From positions 32,379-96,378 of the forward strand of contig JAFRBI010000006.1 of NCBI GenBank assembly GCA_017404935.1: 64,000 nucleotides of DNA, in the 5' to 3' direction. Under the pieces are notes generated by a model. That model was not told the origin of the DNA, made no database searches, and worked only from the letters and a program-made list of their open reading frames with translations. The stretch comes from Candidatus Saccharimonadota bacterium (GTDB taxonomy: Bacteria; Patescibacteriota; Saccharimonadia; Saccharimonadales; Saccharimonadaceae). The position numbers and the translations under genes were made by a program. Within the stretch, counting starts at the first letter, position 1. The number at the start of each line of letters is the position of its first letter. Positions 24,253-64,000 of the stretch are shown here, in pieces.

Positions 24253-24354
24253 TTGTCCTCCAATTTACCCCTATTATACCACGAAAAAGGGGTGGGGGGT
24301 TGAAATTTTTAATAAGTTGTGATTGAATATTCGCACTTAAAAGAAAGGAGAATT

Positions 24355-41027: not shown

Positions 41028-41049
41028 ACTGTGCTATAATTAGGGAAGT

Positions 41050-41100
41050 TACCAAAGACAGTGGCGGCGAAAGCTTAATCATGCCACCGAGGAATTATTC
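41050..41100 (+). promoter_or_regulatory. L10 leader (rplJ autoregulatory RNA)
   Basis: AAGACAGTGGC...GCTTAAT...GCCACCGAGG matches the L10-leader pattern; directly upstream of rplJ. Confidence 0.8.
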
Positions 41101-41178
41101 TTATAATAGAGTTTTGGTGACGATGTTTAACAACTAGCTAACTTTATTATTACAAATTATTAACCAAAGGAACTTTTT

Positions 41179-60408: not shown

Positions 60409-61875
60409 TTGAAGATCATTGGTCTAGACATAGGCACCAAACGTATTGGTGTAGCACGTGCTGATTCTACCACTAGAATCGCAGTTCCATCAGGTTTTAT
60501 TAATGTTGATGGCACCGAATGGACAGAAATCGAAAAACTAGCCAAATTATATAGCACTAATTGGTTCGTGCTGGGGCTGCCGCGTAGTAACGAAGGCAAT
60601 GAAACTCAACAATCACAATATGTGCGAAGTTTTGCCAAAGAGTTACTAAAAAGAATTCCTGATGCAAAAATTAGATTTCAAGATGAATCTTTAACTTCGG
60701 TAGAAGCCGAAGAAAGATTAAAAGCTCGCAAAAGCAATTATGAAAAAGGCGAAATTGATTCGGAAGCCGCCACCATCATTCTGCAAGATTTTCTAGAATC
60801 TTTTAGAGGGGGTTCTGGGACACCGTCTTCTTCAGAGGCACTGTCCTCGCGCCCGTCGTTACGGGGCTCGGACGCTCTTCTTGCTCCCGTTGTCGCAAGA
60901 CGCTCCTCAGAAGAGGTGTCTCAGAACCCATTGCAAGAAATTCAAGAGAATGTTAAAGTAGTAGCAAAGAAAGAAGGTGACAAAATTAAGATGAGTGCGA
61001 GGAAGACAAAGCATAAAATGAAGAAGTGGCCGATTTTTCTGGTGCTTCTTTTGATTGTCGCAGGGTGCGTGGGGGGATTTTTCCTGGTTCAAAAAATTCG
61101 CGAGCATAATGCCGAAGAACGTCGCAAAGAATACGCTAGAATTGAAGCCGAGATGAAAGCCGAAGTTTTTACCTTTACAATCAAGCCGGGTGAAACGATT
61201 TTTGATATTAAAAAACATCTAGTTGAGGTTGGGTACACAGCAGAAGAAGTAGATAAAGCTTTTGCAGCAGAATATAATTTTCCGTTTCTCTCTGGTCGCC
61301 CAGCAGGAGCAACCCTTGAAGGCTACCTTTATGGAGAAACTTACGAATTTTATAAAGGCGTGCCAGTAGAAGATATTATTACTAAATATCTCGAGAAAAT
61401 GGGGGAAGTAATTACTGAAAATAATTTAGAAGCAAGATATGCGGCGCACGGTTTGTCGCTTTATGAAGGAATTACGCTGGCTTCGGTGGTACAAAAAGAG
61501 TCCCCAGCTGGTGAACATTCAAGGGTGGCTCAAGTATTTTTGACAAGACTCGCATACGGAATACCGATGGGAAGCGACGTAACTGTAACTTACGCTCTTG
61601 ATGTAGAAGACCCAGATCGCACCATTTACAGAGATAACCAAGCAGCACTTAAAATTAATTCTTGCTATAATACTCGCCTTCACGCTGGGCTTCCTTGTGG
61701 ACCAATTTCAAACCCTTCGCTAGCCTCGCTTCTGGCTGTAGCTGATCCAGCCGACACTTCTTATCTGTATTTCTTGACAGGGGACGATGGTTTGATGTAT
61801 TATAGTTATACAGAAGCTGAGCATAACCAGAACGCTTACTTACATTGCCAGAACCTCTGTAACATTTCATTATGA
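60409..61875 (+). CDS. ruvX-mltG: fusion of RuvX/YqgF nuclease and endolytic transglycosylase MltG
   Basis: GLDIGTKRIGVA, VLGLP, DESLTS, IDSEAATIILQ; then TM, LEGYLYGETY, ASVVQKE, PCGPISNPS, YLYFL. Confidence 0.9.
   Translation: MKIIGLDIGTKRIGVARADSTTRIAVPSGFINVDGTEWTEIEKLAKLYSTNWFVLGLPRSNEGNETQQSQYVRSFAKELLKRIPDAKIRFQDESLTSVEAEERLKARKSNYEKGEIDSEAATIILQDFLESFRGGSGTPSSSEALSSRPSLRGSDALLAPVVARRSSEEVSQNPLQEIQENVKVVAKKEGDKIKMSARKTKHKMKKWPIFLVLLLIVAGCVGGFFLVQKIREHNAEERRKEYARIEAEMKAEVFTFTIKPGETIFDIKKHLVEVGYTAEEVDKAFAAEYNFPFLSGRPAGATLEGYLYGETYEFYKGVPVEDIITKYLEKMGEVITENNLEARYAAHGLSLYEGITLASVVQKESPAGEHSRVAQVFLTRLAYGIPMGSDVTVTYALDVEDPDRTIYRDNQAALKINSCYNTRLHAGLPCGPISNPSLASLLAVADPADTSYLYFLTGDDGLMYYSYTEAEHNQNAYLHCQNLCNISL
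60810..60929 (+). repeat. GC-rich hairpin element (core 60832-60908) with inverted arms in the RuvX-MltG linker
   Basis: cccgtcgttacggg core; 3' half shared with the queA copy; arms gggttctgggacaccgtcttct / agaagaggtgtctcagaaccc. Confidence 0.88.
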
Positions 61876-62960
61876 TAGATAAAAAACCTACAAAATGGGA
61901 ACGTTTTAAGCAGATTCTGCCATATATTTTGACGGCTGGTTTTACGATTGGGCTTGTGGCGGTAGGTTCGATGAATAAGGGCGCCTCTGGGACAACTCTA
62001 TCGCTAGACTCATTCGCAAAGAGTGATTATGATATTTCGGTGGATCAGCTAACAGAGATGTATGTAGTGGCAGATCTTTCTGACGCTTTGAATTTGGCTT
62101 CGGCATCTGACGTGGCCTCAAACTACGTGGTAACTACCTCTATGTATGACGCTGGTCAAACTGCCACTGGCAAACTAGAAAAACCTTCAATTACTAATAT
62201 TGAGGTATCTCGTGGCGTAATTGAACATGTAGTCCAAGGTGGCGAAAACGCCGAAACTATCGCAGCAAAATATGGTATTTCGGCCGACCAACTGCGTTGG
62301 TCTAATAATCTCAAGAATAATGAGATTCCAGTGGGGACCGTTTTACATCTTCCTAGCGTCCCAGGTATTGTTTATACAGTAAAAGCTGGTGATACTGTAG
62401 AATCTATCGCTGCCAAATATGGCTCTTCGGCAGTAGAAATTACTGCTTTAAATGACCTTGAGGAATCTGGCGTAGCTGAAGGTGCGATGATTATCATTAA
62501 AAATGGTTCGCTCCCAGAGAATGAGCGTCCAGAGTATGTAGCACCAAGGCGTTCTTCAACTACTTATAGCACCACTACTTATCGTTATTCTTACCTTGGT
62601 AGCGCTTCGGACCGTCAAAATATTCAGGTGATTTACCCACGCTTTACCGGTGCTGGTGGTGGCCAATGTGTAAACTGGGCTTCTTATATGCGCCCTGATC
62701 TTGGCGCACTTAGACTTGGCAACGCTCGCGACTGGGCTAGAGGAGCAGCGGCTCACGGCTACTCAGTGAACCGCACCCCATCAGCTGGTGCAATCTTCCA
62801 GACCTCTTCTGGTTGGTATGGTCACGTAGGTTATGTAGAAGCAGTAAATGCTGATGGTTCTATCACCGTTACAGAGATGAACTATGGTTATGTGCCTTAT
62901 CGTGTAATTCGCGCGACAATTCCTGCTGGGTCTGTGGGAAACTTTAACTATATTCACTAA
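61872..62960 (+). CDS. LysM-repeat, CHAP-domain peptidoglycan hydrolase
   Basis: TM; two LysM (HVVQGGE, YTVKAGDT); GQCVNWA, GHVGYVE, TEMNY. Confidence 0.92.
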   Translation: MIDKKPTKWERFKQILPYILTAGFTIGLVAVGSMNKGASGTTLSLDSFAKSDYDISVDQLTEMYVVADLSDALNLASASDVASNYVVTTSMYDAGQTATGKLEKPSITNIEVSRGVIEHVVQGGENAETIAAKYGISADQLRWSNNLKNNEIPVGTVLHLPSVPGIVYTVKAGDTVESIAAKYGSSAVEITALNDLEESGVAEGAMIIIKNGSLPENERPEYVAPRRSSTTYSTTTYRYSYLGSASDRQNIQVIYPRFTGAGGGQCVNWASYMRPDLGALRLGNARDWARGAAAHGYSVNRTPSAGAIFQTSSGWYGHVGYVEAVNADGSITVTEMNYGYVPYRVIRATIPAGSVGNFNYIH

Positions 62961-62978
62961 ATTTTGTCAAAAAAATGC

Positions 62979-63007
62979 TTGACAGCATACTGCTTATGCT
63001 TTATTAT
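62979..63007 (+). promoter_or_regulatory. consensus sigma70 promoter driving the sRNA candidate
   Basis: TTGACA-17 bp-TATTAT. Confidence 0.8.
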
Positions 63008-63015
63008 TAAATTAA

Positions 63016-63162
63016 GCTGGTACGCTTCACAAGGGGTTCCACTGATAATTAGTGGAGTGTGGAGACTTACATTAATAAAACAAACAGCGGATTAAAACAA
63101 ACCAATGTGCCCCACGGGTGGGCGCGCATCAGCGCGGGAAGGCGACCTTCGGGTCGCTTTTT
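63016..63162 (+). ncRNA. candidate ~150-nt structured small RNA (unassigned)
   Basis: Own promoter; 5'/3' pairing gctggt/atcagc; internal hairpins; ends in gcgacc-ttcg-ggtcgc-ttttt terminator; no credible ORF. Confidence 0.6.
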
Positions 63163-63192
63163 CATTCATAAGTTTTATGGTATAATATAACT

Positions 63193-64000
63193 ATGTTTGT
63201 AGATAAGGCGAAAGTGAGTTTGAAGGCAGGAAAAGGTGGCAATGGCGCCGTATCTTTTCGCCACGAGATTTATATCCCAAAAGGTGGCCCAGATGGTGGC
63301 GATGGTGGCAAAGGCGGCGACATTGTTTTTGTAGCCGATAAAGACACCGATACCTTGGTAGATTTTCGCTTTGCACCAATTTTGACCGCAGAAGATGGTA
63401 AAAATGGCTCGGGTCAACGTGTTGCTGGGCGCTCAGGCGATGATTTGATTGTAGAAGTGCCAATCGGCACCGTAGTTTATAAAGATGGTGAGAAAATAGC
63501 TGACCTCACGCGTGACAAGCAGACTGCAATCATCGCAAAAGGTGGTGATGGTGGGTTTGGCAATGCGCATTTTAAGAGCTCTACTCGCCAAGCACCTTTG
63601 GTAGCTGAGGTTGGCGAGCCGGGTGAAGAATTTGAGGCTGAGCTCGAGCTTAAATCTATCGCTGATGTAGGCTTGGTGGGTCTTCCGAATGCTGGCAAAT
63701 CTACTTTCCTATCTGTTATTTCTAATGCCAAACCAGAAATTGCCGATTACCCATTCACTACGATTACGCCACAACTTGGTGTAGCCACAATTGACAATCA
63801 CGATCTTTTGGTTGCTGATATTCCAGGTTTAATTGAGGGCGCCGCCGAAGGCAAGGGCCTCGGGCACGATTTTCTTCGTCACGTAGAAAGAACTGCCGTC
63901 CTTTTACATCTTGTAGATGTTTATAATGATGATGCTGGCGAAGCTTACCAAACAATCAGAAATGAGCTTTCAAAATACGAAGATCTCGCTTCTCGCCCAG
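63193..64000 (+). CDS. obgE: GTPase ObgE (truncated by window end)
   Basis: MFVDKAKV..KAGKGGNGAVSFR, GGPDGGDGGKGG, GLPNAGKST, DYPFTT, DIPGLIEGA, GLGHDFLRH. Confidence 0.97.
   Translation, partial: MFVDKAKVSLKAGKGGNGAVSFRHEIYIPKGGPDGGDGGKGGDIVFVADKDTDTLVDFRFAPILTAEDGKNGSGQRVAGRSGDDLIVEVPIGTVVYKDGEKIADLTRDKQTAIIAKGGDGGFGNAHFKSSTRQAPLVAEVGEPGEEFEAELELKSIADVGLVGLPNAGKSTFLSVISNAKPEIADYPFTTITPQLGVATIDNHDLLVADIPGLIEGAAEGKGLGHDFLRHVERTAVLLHLVDVYNDDAGEAYQTIRNELSKYEDLASRP

Follow-up and report, generated by a model that had tools for sequence, protein, structure and literature searches.

A candidate stand-alone small RNA gene of a new family, found in most genomes of one Saccharibacteria order

Organization of the locus

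What is encoded in the short interval immediately upstream of obg in the Saccharibacteria genome analyzed here? A preliminary description of this 64,000-nucleotide stretch of DNA (the window) had read the interval as an unassigned stand-alone small RNA (sRNA) with its own promoter and terminator, and this reading has been borne out by the promoter, the terminator, the conservation of the sequence, and the lack of any Rfam match. Positions 62979 to 63162 of the forward strand consist of a promoter, a conserved structured core (63016-63133), and a terminator with a UUCG loop, with the following features in and next to them.

62979..63007, + strand: sigma-70-type promoter (TTGACA 62979-62984, 17-nt spacer, TATTAT 63002-63007)
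63016..63025, + strand: 5' strand of P1, GCUGGUACGC, pairing with 63124-63133, with one A x C mismatch (63022/63127)
63026..63032, + strand: 5' strand of the internal loop, UUCACAA, variable in sequence and length (2-8 nt) in alignments across the family
63033..63037, + strand: 5' strand of P2, GGGGU, partner of GCCCC 63109-63113
63037..63064, + strand: genus-specific insertion, a hairpin UUCCACU-loop-AGUGGAG at 63037-63057 and then a second GUGGAG at 63059-63064
63065..63108, + strand: A/C-rich, G-poor, single-stranded apical region, carrying the twin boxes
63076-63085 and 63093-63102, + strand: twin boxes UAAAACAAAC (TAAAACAAAC), from exact reading of the sequence
63109..63113, + strand: 3' strand of P2, GCCCC, partner of GGGGU 63033-63037
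63116..63123, + strand: 3' strand of the internal loop, GGGUGGGC, the best-conserved element of the family
63124..63133, + strand: 3' strand of P1, GCGCAUCAGC, partner of 63016-63025, with covariation
63141..63162, + strand: intrinsic terminator, GGCGACC-UUCG-GGUCGC followed by U5, formed in the full MFE fold
63178-63186, + strand: separate extended -10 of obg, TGgTATAAT, outside the sRNA and 7 nt before the obg ATG
63193 (entry 63178..63195), + strand: obg start codon ATG, outside the sRNA; the Obg domains were confirmed by Pfam

The promoter matches 11 of 12 consensus positions in a promoter scan, which agrees with the consensus promoter of the preliminary description, and transcription of the sRNA is predicted to start near A63014. 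The C(UUCG)G intrinsic terminator and the separate promoter element of obg behind it, both part of the same description, are likewise present. The terminator is absent from the listing of a simple terminator scan; it was read directly from the sequence. The 153-nt transcript has an MFE of -53.6 kcal/mol (z = -3.96), a stability reached by 0 of 200 shuffles, and the folding z-scores of nine family members range from -0.7 to -4.1, with eight of the nine below -1.8.

The same layout recurs among homologues. A TTGACA-like -35 element (at most one mismatch) and a TAnnnT element are found upstream of 74 of 91 distinct homologues, compared with 3/91 shuffled flanks and 2/91 in antisense orientation, and terminator-like sites are found 3' of 75 of the 91 (controls: 3/91 shuffled flanks, 7/91 antisense). 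At the terminator position, relatives have a U run preceded by hairpins that are unrelated in sequence. On the sRNA strand, G.U exceeds A.C (29 versus 13). Two small ORFs of 43 aa (62964-63095 and 63059-63190) were rejected; they are not conserved, since they cross indel-rich alignment columns. We expect that the strong housekeeping-type promoter would drive the sRNA and that its own intrinsic terminator would end the transcript, its abundance, ends, and processing being predicted from sequence.

Distribution and copy number

A covariance model of the RNA matched 104 of 151 genomes of the order at E <= 0.01, including 92 of the 131 high-quality ones. Exactly one match was found in 99 of the 104 positive genomes, and the second matches in the other five scored 20-24 bits. 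Within the organism's own family, the RNA was present in 19 of 19 sampled genomes. Across 29 relatives in the genus, the core is 83-95% identical at the nucleotide level with both flanks diverging, and the Obg protein of these relatives is 62-84% identical. The search for homologues and covariation proposed in the preliminary description has yielded a family found order-wide, with compensatory changes in 12 of 14 pairs.

Among the 80 pattern matches listed in species-representative genomes, 62 score 51-72 bits, and 56 of these 62 have Saccharibacteria-type record titles. GC-rich pattern matches in Streptomyces, Nocardia, myxobacteria, and others were rejected as chance, 16 of the 80 listed matches scoring at most 23 bits and 2 giving no match to the model. 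Outside the order, the covariance model gave no convincing copy, neither in 85 genomes from other orders of its class nor in 144 from other classes. A lone match from a different order of the class scored 33.5 bits but falls within an ORF of 666 aa, and six weak matches in other classes (20.6-25.9 bits) have flanks without an evident promoter or terminator, one of them being a terminator-like hairpin; all seven were judged spurious.

The 47 of 151 order genomes without a model match include whole families, which suggests that the RNA is either dispensable there or diverged beyond the reach of the model. When about 2 kb 3' of ligA was scanned with filters off in five RNA-negative genomes, one weak candidate was found (genome G104, 15.4 bits), in which GGGUGGG is kept and the loop is U-rich. 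Taken together, positions 63014-63162 very probably represent a stand-alone, vertically inherited sRNA gene of an uncatalogued family, present once per genome in most of one Saccharibacteria order.

Structure of the RNA

In the family consensus, a hairpin of ~85 nt, a G/C-rich closing helix (P1) is followed by an asymmetric internal loop with an almost invariant 3' strand, GGGUGGGC, and then by helix P2 and an apical loop that is rich in A/C, poor in G, and marked by twin AAAYAAA-type boxes; the conserved core of the source genome is longer, at 118 nt. Among 94 distinct sequences, the compensatory changes affect 7 of the 9 modelled pairs in P1 and all 5 in P2, where 99.1% of cells are paired. 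Over all modelled pairs 93.7% of cells are paired, a value reached by 0 of 500 shuffles and compared with 16-61% in slid controls, although the alignments were fitted to the model and the procedure thus favors the structure.

The individual pairings of the preliminary description fared differently. The closing stem gctggt/atcagc is supported by G-C to U-A and U-A to A-U swaps in P1 inside the genus. The pairing tccact/agtgga, that of the insertion hairpin, is missing in homologues of other genera and is supported within the genus, where it is kept through an A-U to G-C change in one relative. The pairing cttcaca/tgtggag is invariant, is confined to this genus, and competes with uucac/guggg of the MFE fold, so that the UUCAC of the genus has two possible partners, GUGGG (MFE) or GUGGAG (alifold). 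The fourth pairing, gtgccc/gggcgc, is contradicted by the consensus: CCCC (63110-63113) pairs with GGGG (63033-63036), replaced by AGGG/CCCU in the genus and by GGCUC/GAGCC or GCGGC/GCCGC elsewhere, GCGC forms part of the closing stem, and GGGUGGGC lies in an internal loop.

Conservation is strongest in GGGUGGGC and in the sequence of P1, beyond what mere pairing would demand. GGGTGGG is identical in all 29 genus sequences, and GGUGGGC is retained throughout the diverse alignment, with L058, which reads GGGUGAGC, as the sole exception. The strand opposite GGGUGGGC is variable, so Watson-Crick pairing is not what holds this element. In the A-rich loop, composition and the twin boxes are conserved, exact sequence and length (20-45 nt across the family) are not, and the loop accommodates an entire inserted hairpin in this genus. 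The largest MFE hairpin loops across the family are 70% A, 16% C, 11% U, and 3.5% G, and 59 of 91 distinct homologues have two or more boxes that match A3-5[CU]A3-6. In the source genome the twin motif TAAAACAAAC lies exactly where the preliminary description had placed it.

By inspection, the G-rich loop is also able to pair with the 3' strand of P2 into other hairpins, e.g., CCACCC/GGGUGG in the main clade, and an alternative 3' hairpin in this genus would be GUGCCC/GGGCGC. A conformational switch between the P2 fold and such hairpins is conceivable.

Genomic neighborhood

The RNA gene is tied to no single neighbor. In 30 loci of the genus, obg lies downstream on the same strand in 3, upstream on the same strand in 7, divergently in 6, and convergently in 4, and the remaining 10 have no obg within 1.5 kb of the RNA. 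In other families the RNA gene is found behind ligA and, in many cases, ahead of tRNA-Ala(GGC). Of 39 loci from other genomes, 27 have ligA on the same strand no more than 1.5 kb upstream of the RNA, and in 17 the two are directly adjacent; the sRNA promoter overlaps the end of the ligA coding region in most families. Since no separate ligA terminator is evident in the 17 adjacent loci, ligA transcripts probably end there at the sRNA terminator. A tRNA is present in 10 of 20 scanned loci, and tRNA-Ala(GGC) is next to the RNA gene in 12 of 14 loci, a count biased by the choice of loci in which a tRNA had already been seen. The genus studied here shows a relocation away from ligA without loss of RNA conservation.

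Two neighbors were considered as partners and rejected: tblastn found no match in the source genome to a ~236-aa membrane ORF that separates ligA from the RNA, and RRM_1 neighbors are found in only 2 of 39 loci, the source genome having no RRM.

Known RNA families and partner proteins

No Rfam 15 family was found in the window at gathering score, and at E <= 10 there was only noise (E = 2-9); in 20 diverse homologous loci, no Rfam family matched the RNA at E <= 0.1. ARAGORN found no tRNA or tmRNA at the locus, and the RNase P RNA (235 bits) and tmRNA (86.6 bits) of this genome sit on another contig. Identity as a tRNA, tmRNA, or RNase P RNA was accordingly rejected on the ARAGORN and Rfam results, consistent with the absence of tmRNA, RNase P, SRP, and tRNA hallmarks noted in the preliminary description, which had also proposed the comparison with Rfam. 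The sRNA is a new RNA family, absent from Rfam 15.

Hfq, CsrA, Ro/TROVE, RRM_1, and the Ffh M domain were not found in the source genome (98.8% complete), where the M domain model PF02978 was without a match and the best PF00448 match scored 16.4 bits. Ffh/FtsY was found in 0 of 121 class genomes, with one weak partial match in 101 order genomes, and canonical SRP RNA reached the cut-off in 0 of 61 genomes of the lineage. Neither SRP model (RF00169, RF01854) matched at the locus, and the models of 6S RNA (RF00013 and relatives) gave no match at E <= 10 in the source genome. With no Ffh/FtsY, Hfq, CsrA, Ro, or RRM encoded, the readings as an SRP RNA or as a CrcZ-like, CsrB-like, or Y RNA fail. 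A sponge of the CsrB/RsmZ type was rejected with CsrA not found and no GGA loops in the family consensus, a CrcZ-type Hfq sponge with Hfq not found and A-rich boxes that by inspection fit AAnAAnAA partly, and a Y RNA with the TROVE (Ro) protein not found in the source genome.

Two possible pairing targets of GGGUGGG were also rejected. The C-rich repeat CCCCCCACCCC has 12 copies in the source genome, 2 in a genus relative, and 0-2 elsewhere, and its matches in 15 of 151 genomes are near the reversed-pattern control. SD mimicry was dropped because GGGUGGG can pair with the 16S 3' end, GGAUUACCUCCUUUCU, only through several G.U pairs.

Proposed function and alternative explanations

Our tentative reading is that the sRNA is an abundant protein-binding RNA that serves either as a sponge or as the RNA component of a small RNP. 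P1 and the GGGUGGGC loop would form a sequence-specific docking site, and the unstructured twin A-rich boxes would offer a platform for a single-strand-binding factor, probably dimeric or multimeric. The binding partner would be none of the classical sRNA-binding proteins. The pattern of conservation, with GGGUGGGC and the P1 sequence kept closely and the A-rich loop loosely, appears typical of a macromolecular docking site and not of an antisense seed. A protein-sequestering sRNA, one of the options raised in the preliminary description, would agree with this pattern, but of its known partners (Hfq, CsrA, Ro, RRM) the source genome encodes none. A more specific version, which we consider somewhat doubtful, is that the sRNA forms the core of a novel housekeeping ribonucleoprotein specific to one Saccharibacteria order, in which GGGUGGGC docks a conserved protein or RNA ligand, possibly tRNA 3' ends. 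If true, a class of bacteria that has lost SRP altogether would possess, in this order, a lineage-restricted equivalent of 6S RNA, SRP RNA, or Y RNA.

Regulation by chaperone-independent antisense pairing, in which the A/C-rich boxes would pair with U/G-rich mRNA stretches and alter translation or stability, is unlikely. The twin boxes are accessible, unstructured, and recurrent across the family, and the sequence of promoter, seed region, and terminator is that of a classical trans-acting sRNA. However, in a crude duplex test over the start regions (-40..+25) of 664 ORFs of at least 100 aa, the native loop (63065-63108) formed weaker duplexes than 30 shuffled loops (top-10 mean -16.4 versus -19.8 +/- 1.0 kcal/mol), and the start-region duplexes were also weaker than those with internal coding windows (-19.15 kcal/mol), with no enrichment. 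A blastn search of the organism's own genome with the RNA found no antisense match above 14 nt. Conservation is higher in the G-rich loop and P1 than in the A-rich boxes, and the RNA is conserved across the whole order, which is unusual among antisense sRNAs. It is highly improbable that the RNA acts as a stand-alone sensor or binder of tRNA 3' ends, with the UGGG within GGGUGGGC pairing with NCCA-3' like the UGGN of a T-box. [quoted passage not shown] The Rfam T-box model (RF00230) has no match in the window (E <= 10) or in 20 diverse loci (E <= 0.1), neither a Stem I nor anything like a specifier was observed, and the G-rich strand leads from the apical helix down to the basal one, the reverse of the polarity in the T-box antiterminator bulge. 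There is also no conserved downstream gene to regulate; the genes that follow differ between loci and are set apart from the RNA by a terminator and a further promoter, and N = G would suit only tRNAs with C73 or U73, while tRNA-Ala normally has A73.

The chance is very small that this is a divergent 6S-like RNA binding the housekeeping RNA polymerase holoenzyme, as the preliminary description had suggested. The source genome has no detected 6S RNA, which leaves this slot vacant; the sRNA itself is conserved, present in one copy, and strongly promoted; and its apical UAAAAU- and UAAAAC-like stretches loosely resemble, by inspection, a single-stranded -10 element. Yet neither RF00013 and related models nor any other Rfam model matches, and what is found is a single hairpin of ~85 nt with a helix of ~18-20 bp and an apical loop closed on one side only, rather than the ~180-nt rod of 6S RNA, in which two long helices flank a central bubble. 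A comparably slight chance attaches to a cis-acting element, either an attenuator or leader of obg, also put forward in the preliminary description, or a module that serves the gene upstream, ligA in most families, as 3'-UTR or terminator. The RNA does lie immediately upstream of obg in the source genome, and ligA probably shares the sRNA terminator in the 17 adjacent loci, but obg has its own extended -10 after the terminator, its position and orientation vary (downstream on the same strand in those 3 of 30 genus loci), and elsewhere the RNA neighbors ligA and tRNA-Ala; on this variable context the obg attenuator was rejected. Its own promoter is kept wherever it sits, and it has moved from ligA in this genus with its conservation intact. 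That the RNA is a relic or exapted SRP (4.5S) RNA has a minimal chance. It is a single-copy hairpin of 4.5S-like size in a lineage without detectable canonical SRP RNA, but Ffh/FtsY was found in none of the 121 class genomes, the M domain is absent from the source genome, the SRP models fail at the locus, and there is no GNRA-capped domain IV; moreover, SRP loss is class-wide and the RNA is found in one order only.

Significance

Saccharibacteria are tiny epibiotic bacteria with genomes of ~0.7-1 Mb and very little non-coding DNA. The single copy across dozens of families, the invariant loop, and the covarying helices suggest that the RNA likely has a central role, and in organisms without Hfq, CsrA, or even SRP, its partner would be new biology. 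In the excerpts of the literature that our search covered, no conserved regulatory or structural RNA was described for Saccharibacteria beyond the universal RNAs. Several Saccharibacteria are now reported to be cultivable and transformable (PMC10633639), which should make the function of the RNA directly testable.

Comparison with known systems

Like the CrcZ, CsrB, and RsmZ sponges, the sRNA is stand-alone, strongly promoted, and ended by a terminator, and short single-stranded boxes recur in it. The AAnAAnAA (A-A-N triplet) pattern by which CrcZ (Hfq/Crc) binds the Hfq distal face is matched by stretches such as AACAAAAA. Unlike these sponges, it has two boxes only, its GGA motifs are confined to the genus-specific insertion, its conservation is dominated by the invariant G-rich internal loop, and neither Hfq nor CsrA is encoded. 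With 6S RNA it shares the character of a conserved, single-copy, structured, housekeeping-type RNA, but it has half the length, and its loop is apical, whereas 6S RNA has a central bubble between two long helices.

In the T-box, AGGGUGGNACCGCG has been described as the most conserved part, involved in recognizing the tRNA NCCA end (PMC11297988). The invariant loop of the sRNA coincides with its first 8 nt; in contrast to a T-box, the sRNA leads no amino-acid gene, the polarity of the bulge relative to the helices differs, and the rest of the motif is different. The bacterial small SRP (4.5S) RNA is also a single hairpin (~85-120 nt) present in one copy per genome amid stable-RNA genes, but the sRNA has neither domain-IV motifs nor a model match, and the class sampled has no Ffh/FtsY. 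In its position, mostly directly after ligA with a promoter overlapping the coding end and a shared terminator, the sRNA resembles the 3'-UTR-embedded sRNAs DapZ and MicL. sRNAs of that type have an internal promoter and are narrow-range, Hfq-dependent antisense regulators, whereas the sRNA described here is found order-wide and has kept its identity after relocation.

An RNA gene of its own beside obg

Every coordinate that the preliminary description had given for a small RNA (sRNA) gene at 63014-63162 of the window agrees with a re-reading of positions 62400-64000. The conserved core of this gene spans 63016-63133, and the locus contains the following features.

61872-62960: LysM/CHAP protein gene, 5' of the sRNA (Pfam)
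62979-62984 and 63002-63007 (+): sRNA promoter, TTGACA and TATTAT with a 17-nt spacer (11/12 promoter positions matched)
63037-63064 (+): insertion found in the genus only, an extra hairpin with a second GUGGAG, at the 5' end of the apical loop
63076-63085 and 63093-63102 (+): twin copies of TAAAACAAAC, from sequence reading
63141-63162 (+): terminator-like G/C-rich hairpin with a UUCG loop and U5 tail, from sequence reading
63178-63186 (+): extended -10 of obg, TGgTATAAT
63193 (+): ATG of obg, the gene 3' of the sRNA (Pfam)

The extended -10 agrees with the earlier claim that obg has its own promoter past the terminator. obg is seemingly leaderless, as TGgTATAAT ends 7 nt before the ATG and a Shine-Dalgarno sequence is absent (63178-63195); several relatives in the genus likewise have a TGnTATAAT-N6-ATG layout 3' of their sRNA terminator. 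The folding energy of the 153-nt stretch is -53.6 kcal/mol (z = -3.96), which was equalled by 0/200 shuffles.

Homologues were scored for a promoter immediately upstream, defined as a TTGACA-like -35 (no more than 1 mismatch) and TAnnnT separated by 15-19 nt, and for a terminator immediately downstream, defined as a stable hairpin with a U run after it. Both elements had been proposed for the window, where they are present, and similar sites accompany 74/91 and 75/91, respectively, of the distinct homologues with full flanks. Shuffled flanks gave 3/91 for either element, and the antisense orientation gave 2/91 promoters and 7/91 terminators. The commonest -10 outside the genus is TATGCT.

When 63008-63165 was used as a blastn query against 61 relatives, 33/36 same-genus genomes matched at E <= 2e-21, and no match outside the genus was better than E = 0.005. 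Conservation is confined to positions 6-127 of the query, closing stem to closing stem. Across a 30-locus genus alignment, core identity is 83-95% and the promoter spacer is variable, while Obg protein identity at the same loci is 62-84%. Terminators in genus relatives are hairpins of unrelated sequence in which the stem and U run are retained. At 3 of the 30 loci obg follows the RNA in the same orientation, at 7 it precedes the RNA on the same strand, at 6 the two are divergent and at 4 convergent, and the remaining 10 have no obg within 1.5 kb. Because the position and orientation of obg vary in this way, the sRNA is a gene of its own and not an obg leader. The attenuator once considered for it thus loses its basis, and the homologue search in Saccharibacteria finds the RNA conserved and not linked to obg.

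Distribution

A covariance model (R1) for which only genus sequences were used gave one match per genome in 65/151 genomes of one order of Saccharibacteria at E <= 1. The top 30 R1 matches were aligned (alignment A2) and used to build a wider model, R2, which at E <= 0.01 has a match in 104/151 order genomes, including 92/131 of those at least 90% complete, and in 87/120 genera; negative genomes are ones where the RNA was not found by the search, rather than cases of proven absence. Exactly one match is present in 99/104 genomes, and the second matches of the other five score 20-24 bits. A scan of the 2 kb after ligA in five RNA-negative genomes gave one weak candidate only.

In a sample of the class around this order, R2 was positive in 19/19 other genomes of the window's own family and 12/16 from other families of the order. 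The sole match among 85 genomes of other orders sits inside a 666-aa ORF and was rejected as a homologue. In a phylum sample all 7/7 same-order genomes were positive, the window's genome (G000) included, and 6/144 other genomes matched weakly (20.6-25.9 bits). We attribute these six to chance, since neither a promoter nor a terminator is evident in their flanks and one of them is a terminator-like hairpin in its own right.

One genome per species was searched for an exact pattern consisting of the two strands of the closing helix (P1) and the invariant loop; this pattern occurs in at least 120 stretches. Among the 80 matches listed, 62 score 51-72 bits with R2 and 2 have no R2 match; the other 16, with 67-90% G+C and at most 23 bits, were rejected as GC-rich pattern matches. 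The titles of 56/62 strong listed matches read Candidatus Saccharibacteria, Saccharimonadales, Saccharimonadia, Saccharimonas or Saccharimonadota, and 5/62 are "bacterium" MAGs. The last (1/62; L124), a Saccharibacteria sRNA scoring 60.9 bits, comes from a MAG with the label Bifidobacteriaceae, where it sits on a 9-kb contig; this contig is probably misbinned, with epibiont sequence placed in its host's bin. One unpublished genome (G069, locus L045) supplies one row of the family alignments A2-A5 and of R2 and is also among the 39 neighbour loci, the Rfam-scanned loci, the tRNA-neighbour loci and the folded members; no claim depends on it alone.

Consensus structure

In the family consensus, P1 pairs UCGUGCG(C/U) with (G/A)CGCACGA; in the window's genus, GCUGRUACGC pairs with GCGCAUCAGC, with one A x C mismatch. 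The internal loop that follows has a variable 5' strand of 2-8 nt and a G-rich 3' strand, (A/C)GGGUGGGC, which is invariant within the genus and retained outside it apart from small differences at the first Gs and a single G-to-A change (L058). The inner helix, P2, is GCGGC/GCCGC, with GGCUC/GAGCC, GGCCC/GGGCC and GGGG/CCCC as alternatives, and is mostly prolonged by GUG/CAC, GUA/UAC or GUUUG/CAAAC over a C x C mismatch. The apical loop measures 20-30 nt, and the largest MFE hairpin loops consist of 70% A, 16% C, 11% U and 3.5% G. Two boxes lie in the apical loop 2-17 nt apart, most often AAAYAAAMA and AAAACAAA. As at least two strict boxes (A3-5[CU]A3-6) recur in 59/91 distinct homologues, the twin single-stranded motif originally noticed in the window is a family feature.

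Covariation analysis of 94 distinct sequences found compensatory changes in 12/14 modelled pairs and 93.7% of cells paired in the modelled helices, in alignments that were fitted to the model and are hence biased towards it. The observed values were reached by 0/500 shuffles, and sliding the partner strand by 1-3 columns lowers pairing to 16-61%. A 45-sequence set behaves similarly, and the same helices emerge in single-sequence folds without constraint. Folding z-scores of 9 members range from -0.7 to -4.1, with 8/9 below -1.8. Paired columns contain 29 G.U versus 13 A.C, as expected if the RNA is read from the sRNA strand.

For the 28 distinct sequences of the genus, two models fit with similar success, pairing 95.6% and 95.8% of cells. 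Both include two helices of the preliminary description, and these hold up: the closing stem covaries at two pairs (G-C to U-A and, at another, U-A to A-U), and the UCCACU/AGUGGA hairpin is kept through an A-U to G-C change. The MFE-type model adds GGGG/CCCC, which becomes AGGG/CCCU in two distinct sequences and has a G.U in one. The GUGCCC/GGGCGC hairpin drawn earlier needs the same Cs and displays no covariation, and we do not retain it.

Relation to known RNAs and proteins

The sRNA family matches no Rfam family. Consistent with the hallmarks of known families having been reported missing, Rfam 15 at gathering score over the whole window has no match at the sRNA; its matches elsewhere are an L10 ribosomal-protein leader (41034-41157, +, 54.3 bits) and a tRNA (2491-2562, -, 59.6 bits). 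At E <= 10 the sRNA locus gives four noise matches only (E = 2-9), and ARAGORN finds no tRNA or tmRNA there. Twenty diverse homologous loci searched at E <= 0.1 yield tRNAs, one unrelated sub-threshold match and nothing else. RNase P RNA and tmRNA, with which the sRNA was rightly not equated, are located elsewhere in the genome (235 bits and 86.6 bits). SRP RNA, small or large, is not detected in G000 at E <= 10, in line with its earlier dismissal; neither is 6S RNA, and the suggestion of a divergent 6S-like RNA gains no backing. The accessible text of the Saccharibacteria, CPR and Patescibacteria RNA literature, including PMC10768705, PMC10633639, PMC8040213, PMC11665869 and a TM7x preprint, yielded no description of the sRNA, which supplements could list.

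SRP RNA is missing because SRP is missing. At cut-off, SRP RNA is found in 0/61 relatives; the Ffh M domain is absent from G000, whose best SRP54-GTPase match (16 bits) is below cut-off; and SRP54-type GTPases amount to one weak partial match in 101 genomes of the order and 0/121 in the class, with 14/14 control genomes positive in each SRP protein search. This loss is already known, since PMC8080830 reports that many CPR bacteria lack the two SRP subunits. Coupling between SRP loss and the sRNA is not tight, because the former is class-wide and the latter was found in one order. Searches of G000, which is 98.8% complete, gave no Hfq, CsrA, Ro/TROVE or RRM_1.

Candidate targets and mode of action

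G000 has 12 copies of an intergenic repeat, TAYCACA...AATTTCAA-CCCCCCACCCC-..GCTTATGCT, in which the complement of the invariant loop is found. They lie on contigs C1, C3, C7, C8, C9 and C10 (at window 24289-24299, for instance, corresponding to C1:56667-56677, minus strand). Some members sit upstream of genes or a tRNA. A genus relative has 2 copies and other order genomes have 0-2, and any match to the pattern occurs in 15/151 genomes, similar to a reversed-pattern control. The repeat is species-specific and therefore excluded as a conserved target of the loop; it may be a promoter/operator module or a small mobile repeat. GCTTATGCT is also present in the sRNA promoter spacer. The 16S rRNA 3' end, which reads GGAUUACCUCCUUUCU on the minus strand of contig C5 of G000 near the contig end, was rejected as a target as it pairs poorly with the loop. 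At the GAUCACC position of 16S rRNA, most bacteria have C versus U in G000.

The strongest constraint lies on GGGUGGGC and the P1 sequence, and the strand facing the G-rich loop varies freely. The composition, G scarcity and two boxes of the A-rich loop are retained, its precise sequence, spacing and length are not, and in the window's genus the loop tolerates an inserted hairpin. This pattern is as expected of a protein-binding RNA and is less typical for an antisense seed. Together with weak start-region duplexes and short antisense matches, it leads us to a tentative preference for an RNP or sponge mechanism, in which the GGGUGGGC loop and P1 would form a specific docking site and the A-rich loop would serve as a low-specificity single-strand platform. 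We consider chaperone-free antisense action unlikely: in a crude test on 664 ORFs, the native loop was predicted to pair less stably with their start regions than shuffled loops were, and less stably than with internal coding windows, and no antisense match in the genome is longer than 14 nt. Rivals other than antisense have small odds. Among them, the sRNA loop could bind tRNA 3' ends as a T-box does, UGGG of the G-rich loop pairing with the NCCA-3' end. The first 8 positions of the T-box sequence agree with this loop, and PMC11297988 describes that sequence as the best-conserved part of T-boxes, with a role in recognition of the tRNA NCCA end. Such binding by the sRNA is highly improbable given that the sRNA has no match to the Rfam T-box model, the remainder of the T-box motif differs, the polarity of the loop relative to the helices is opposite and a regulated gene is absent.

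Gene neighbourhood

Flanks were annotated with Pfam in 39 genomes. NAD-dependent DNA ligase (ligA) lies upstream on the same strand in 27/39, and in 17/39 it is directly adjacent, its stop codon preceding the RNA by 15-60 nt (once about 320 nt) and its end overlapping the sRNA promoter. A further 10/39 have one ORF in between, mostly a multipass membrane protein of ~236 aa with no Pfam family and no tblastn match in the window's genome. This conserved ORF, with the motifs CFSPPVM, GNYVIFQL and PSIMCGFA, is directly upstream of the sRNA at nine loci (L066, L071, L076, L056, L068, L084, L067, L046 and L085). The gene before the ORF is of the Ham1 family in L046 and L085 and is ligA in the other seven. 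Genes for small RRM_1 RNA-binding proteins sit beside the sRNA in divergent orientation in 2/39 genomes (L054:1049-1312 and L086:978-1274, both minus strand), and in one genome a BrnT/CopG-type toxin-antitoxin pair replaces ligA directly 5' of the sRNA (L079:1642-2188).

A tRNA is near the sRNA in 10/20 loci scanned with Rfam, and it is tRNA-Ala(GGC) in 12/14 loci chosen because a tRNA had already been seen there. With ligA upstream in most genomes surveyed, the ancestral gene order is thus ligA, sRNA, tRNA-Ala, and in the window's genus the sRNA has relocated beside obg. The ligA-sRNA arrangement resembles that of 3'-UTR-embedded sRNAs with an internal promoter, a layout that would account for the stable linkage to ligA without a functional tie to the ligase.
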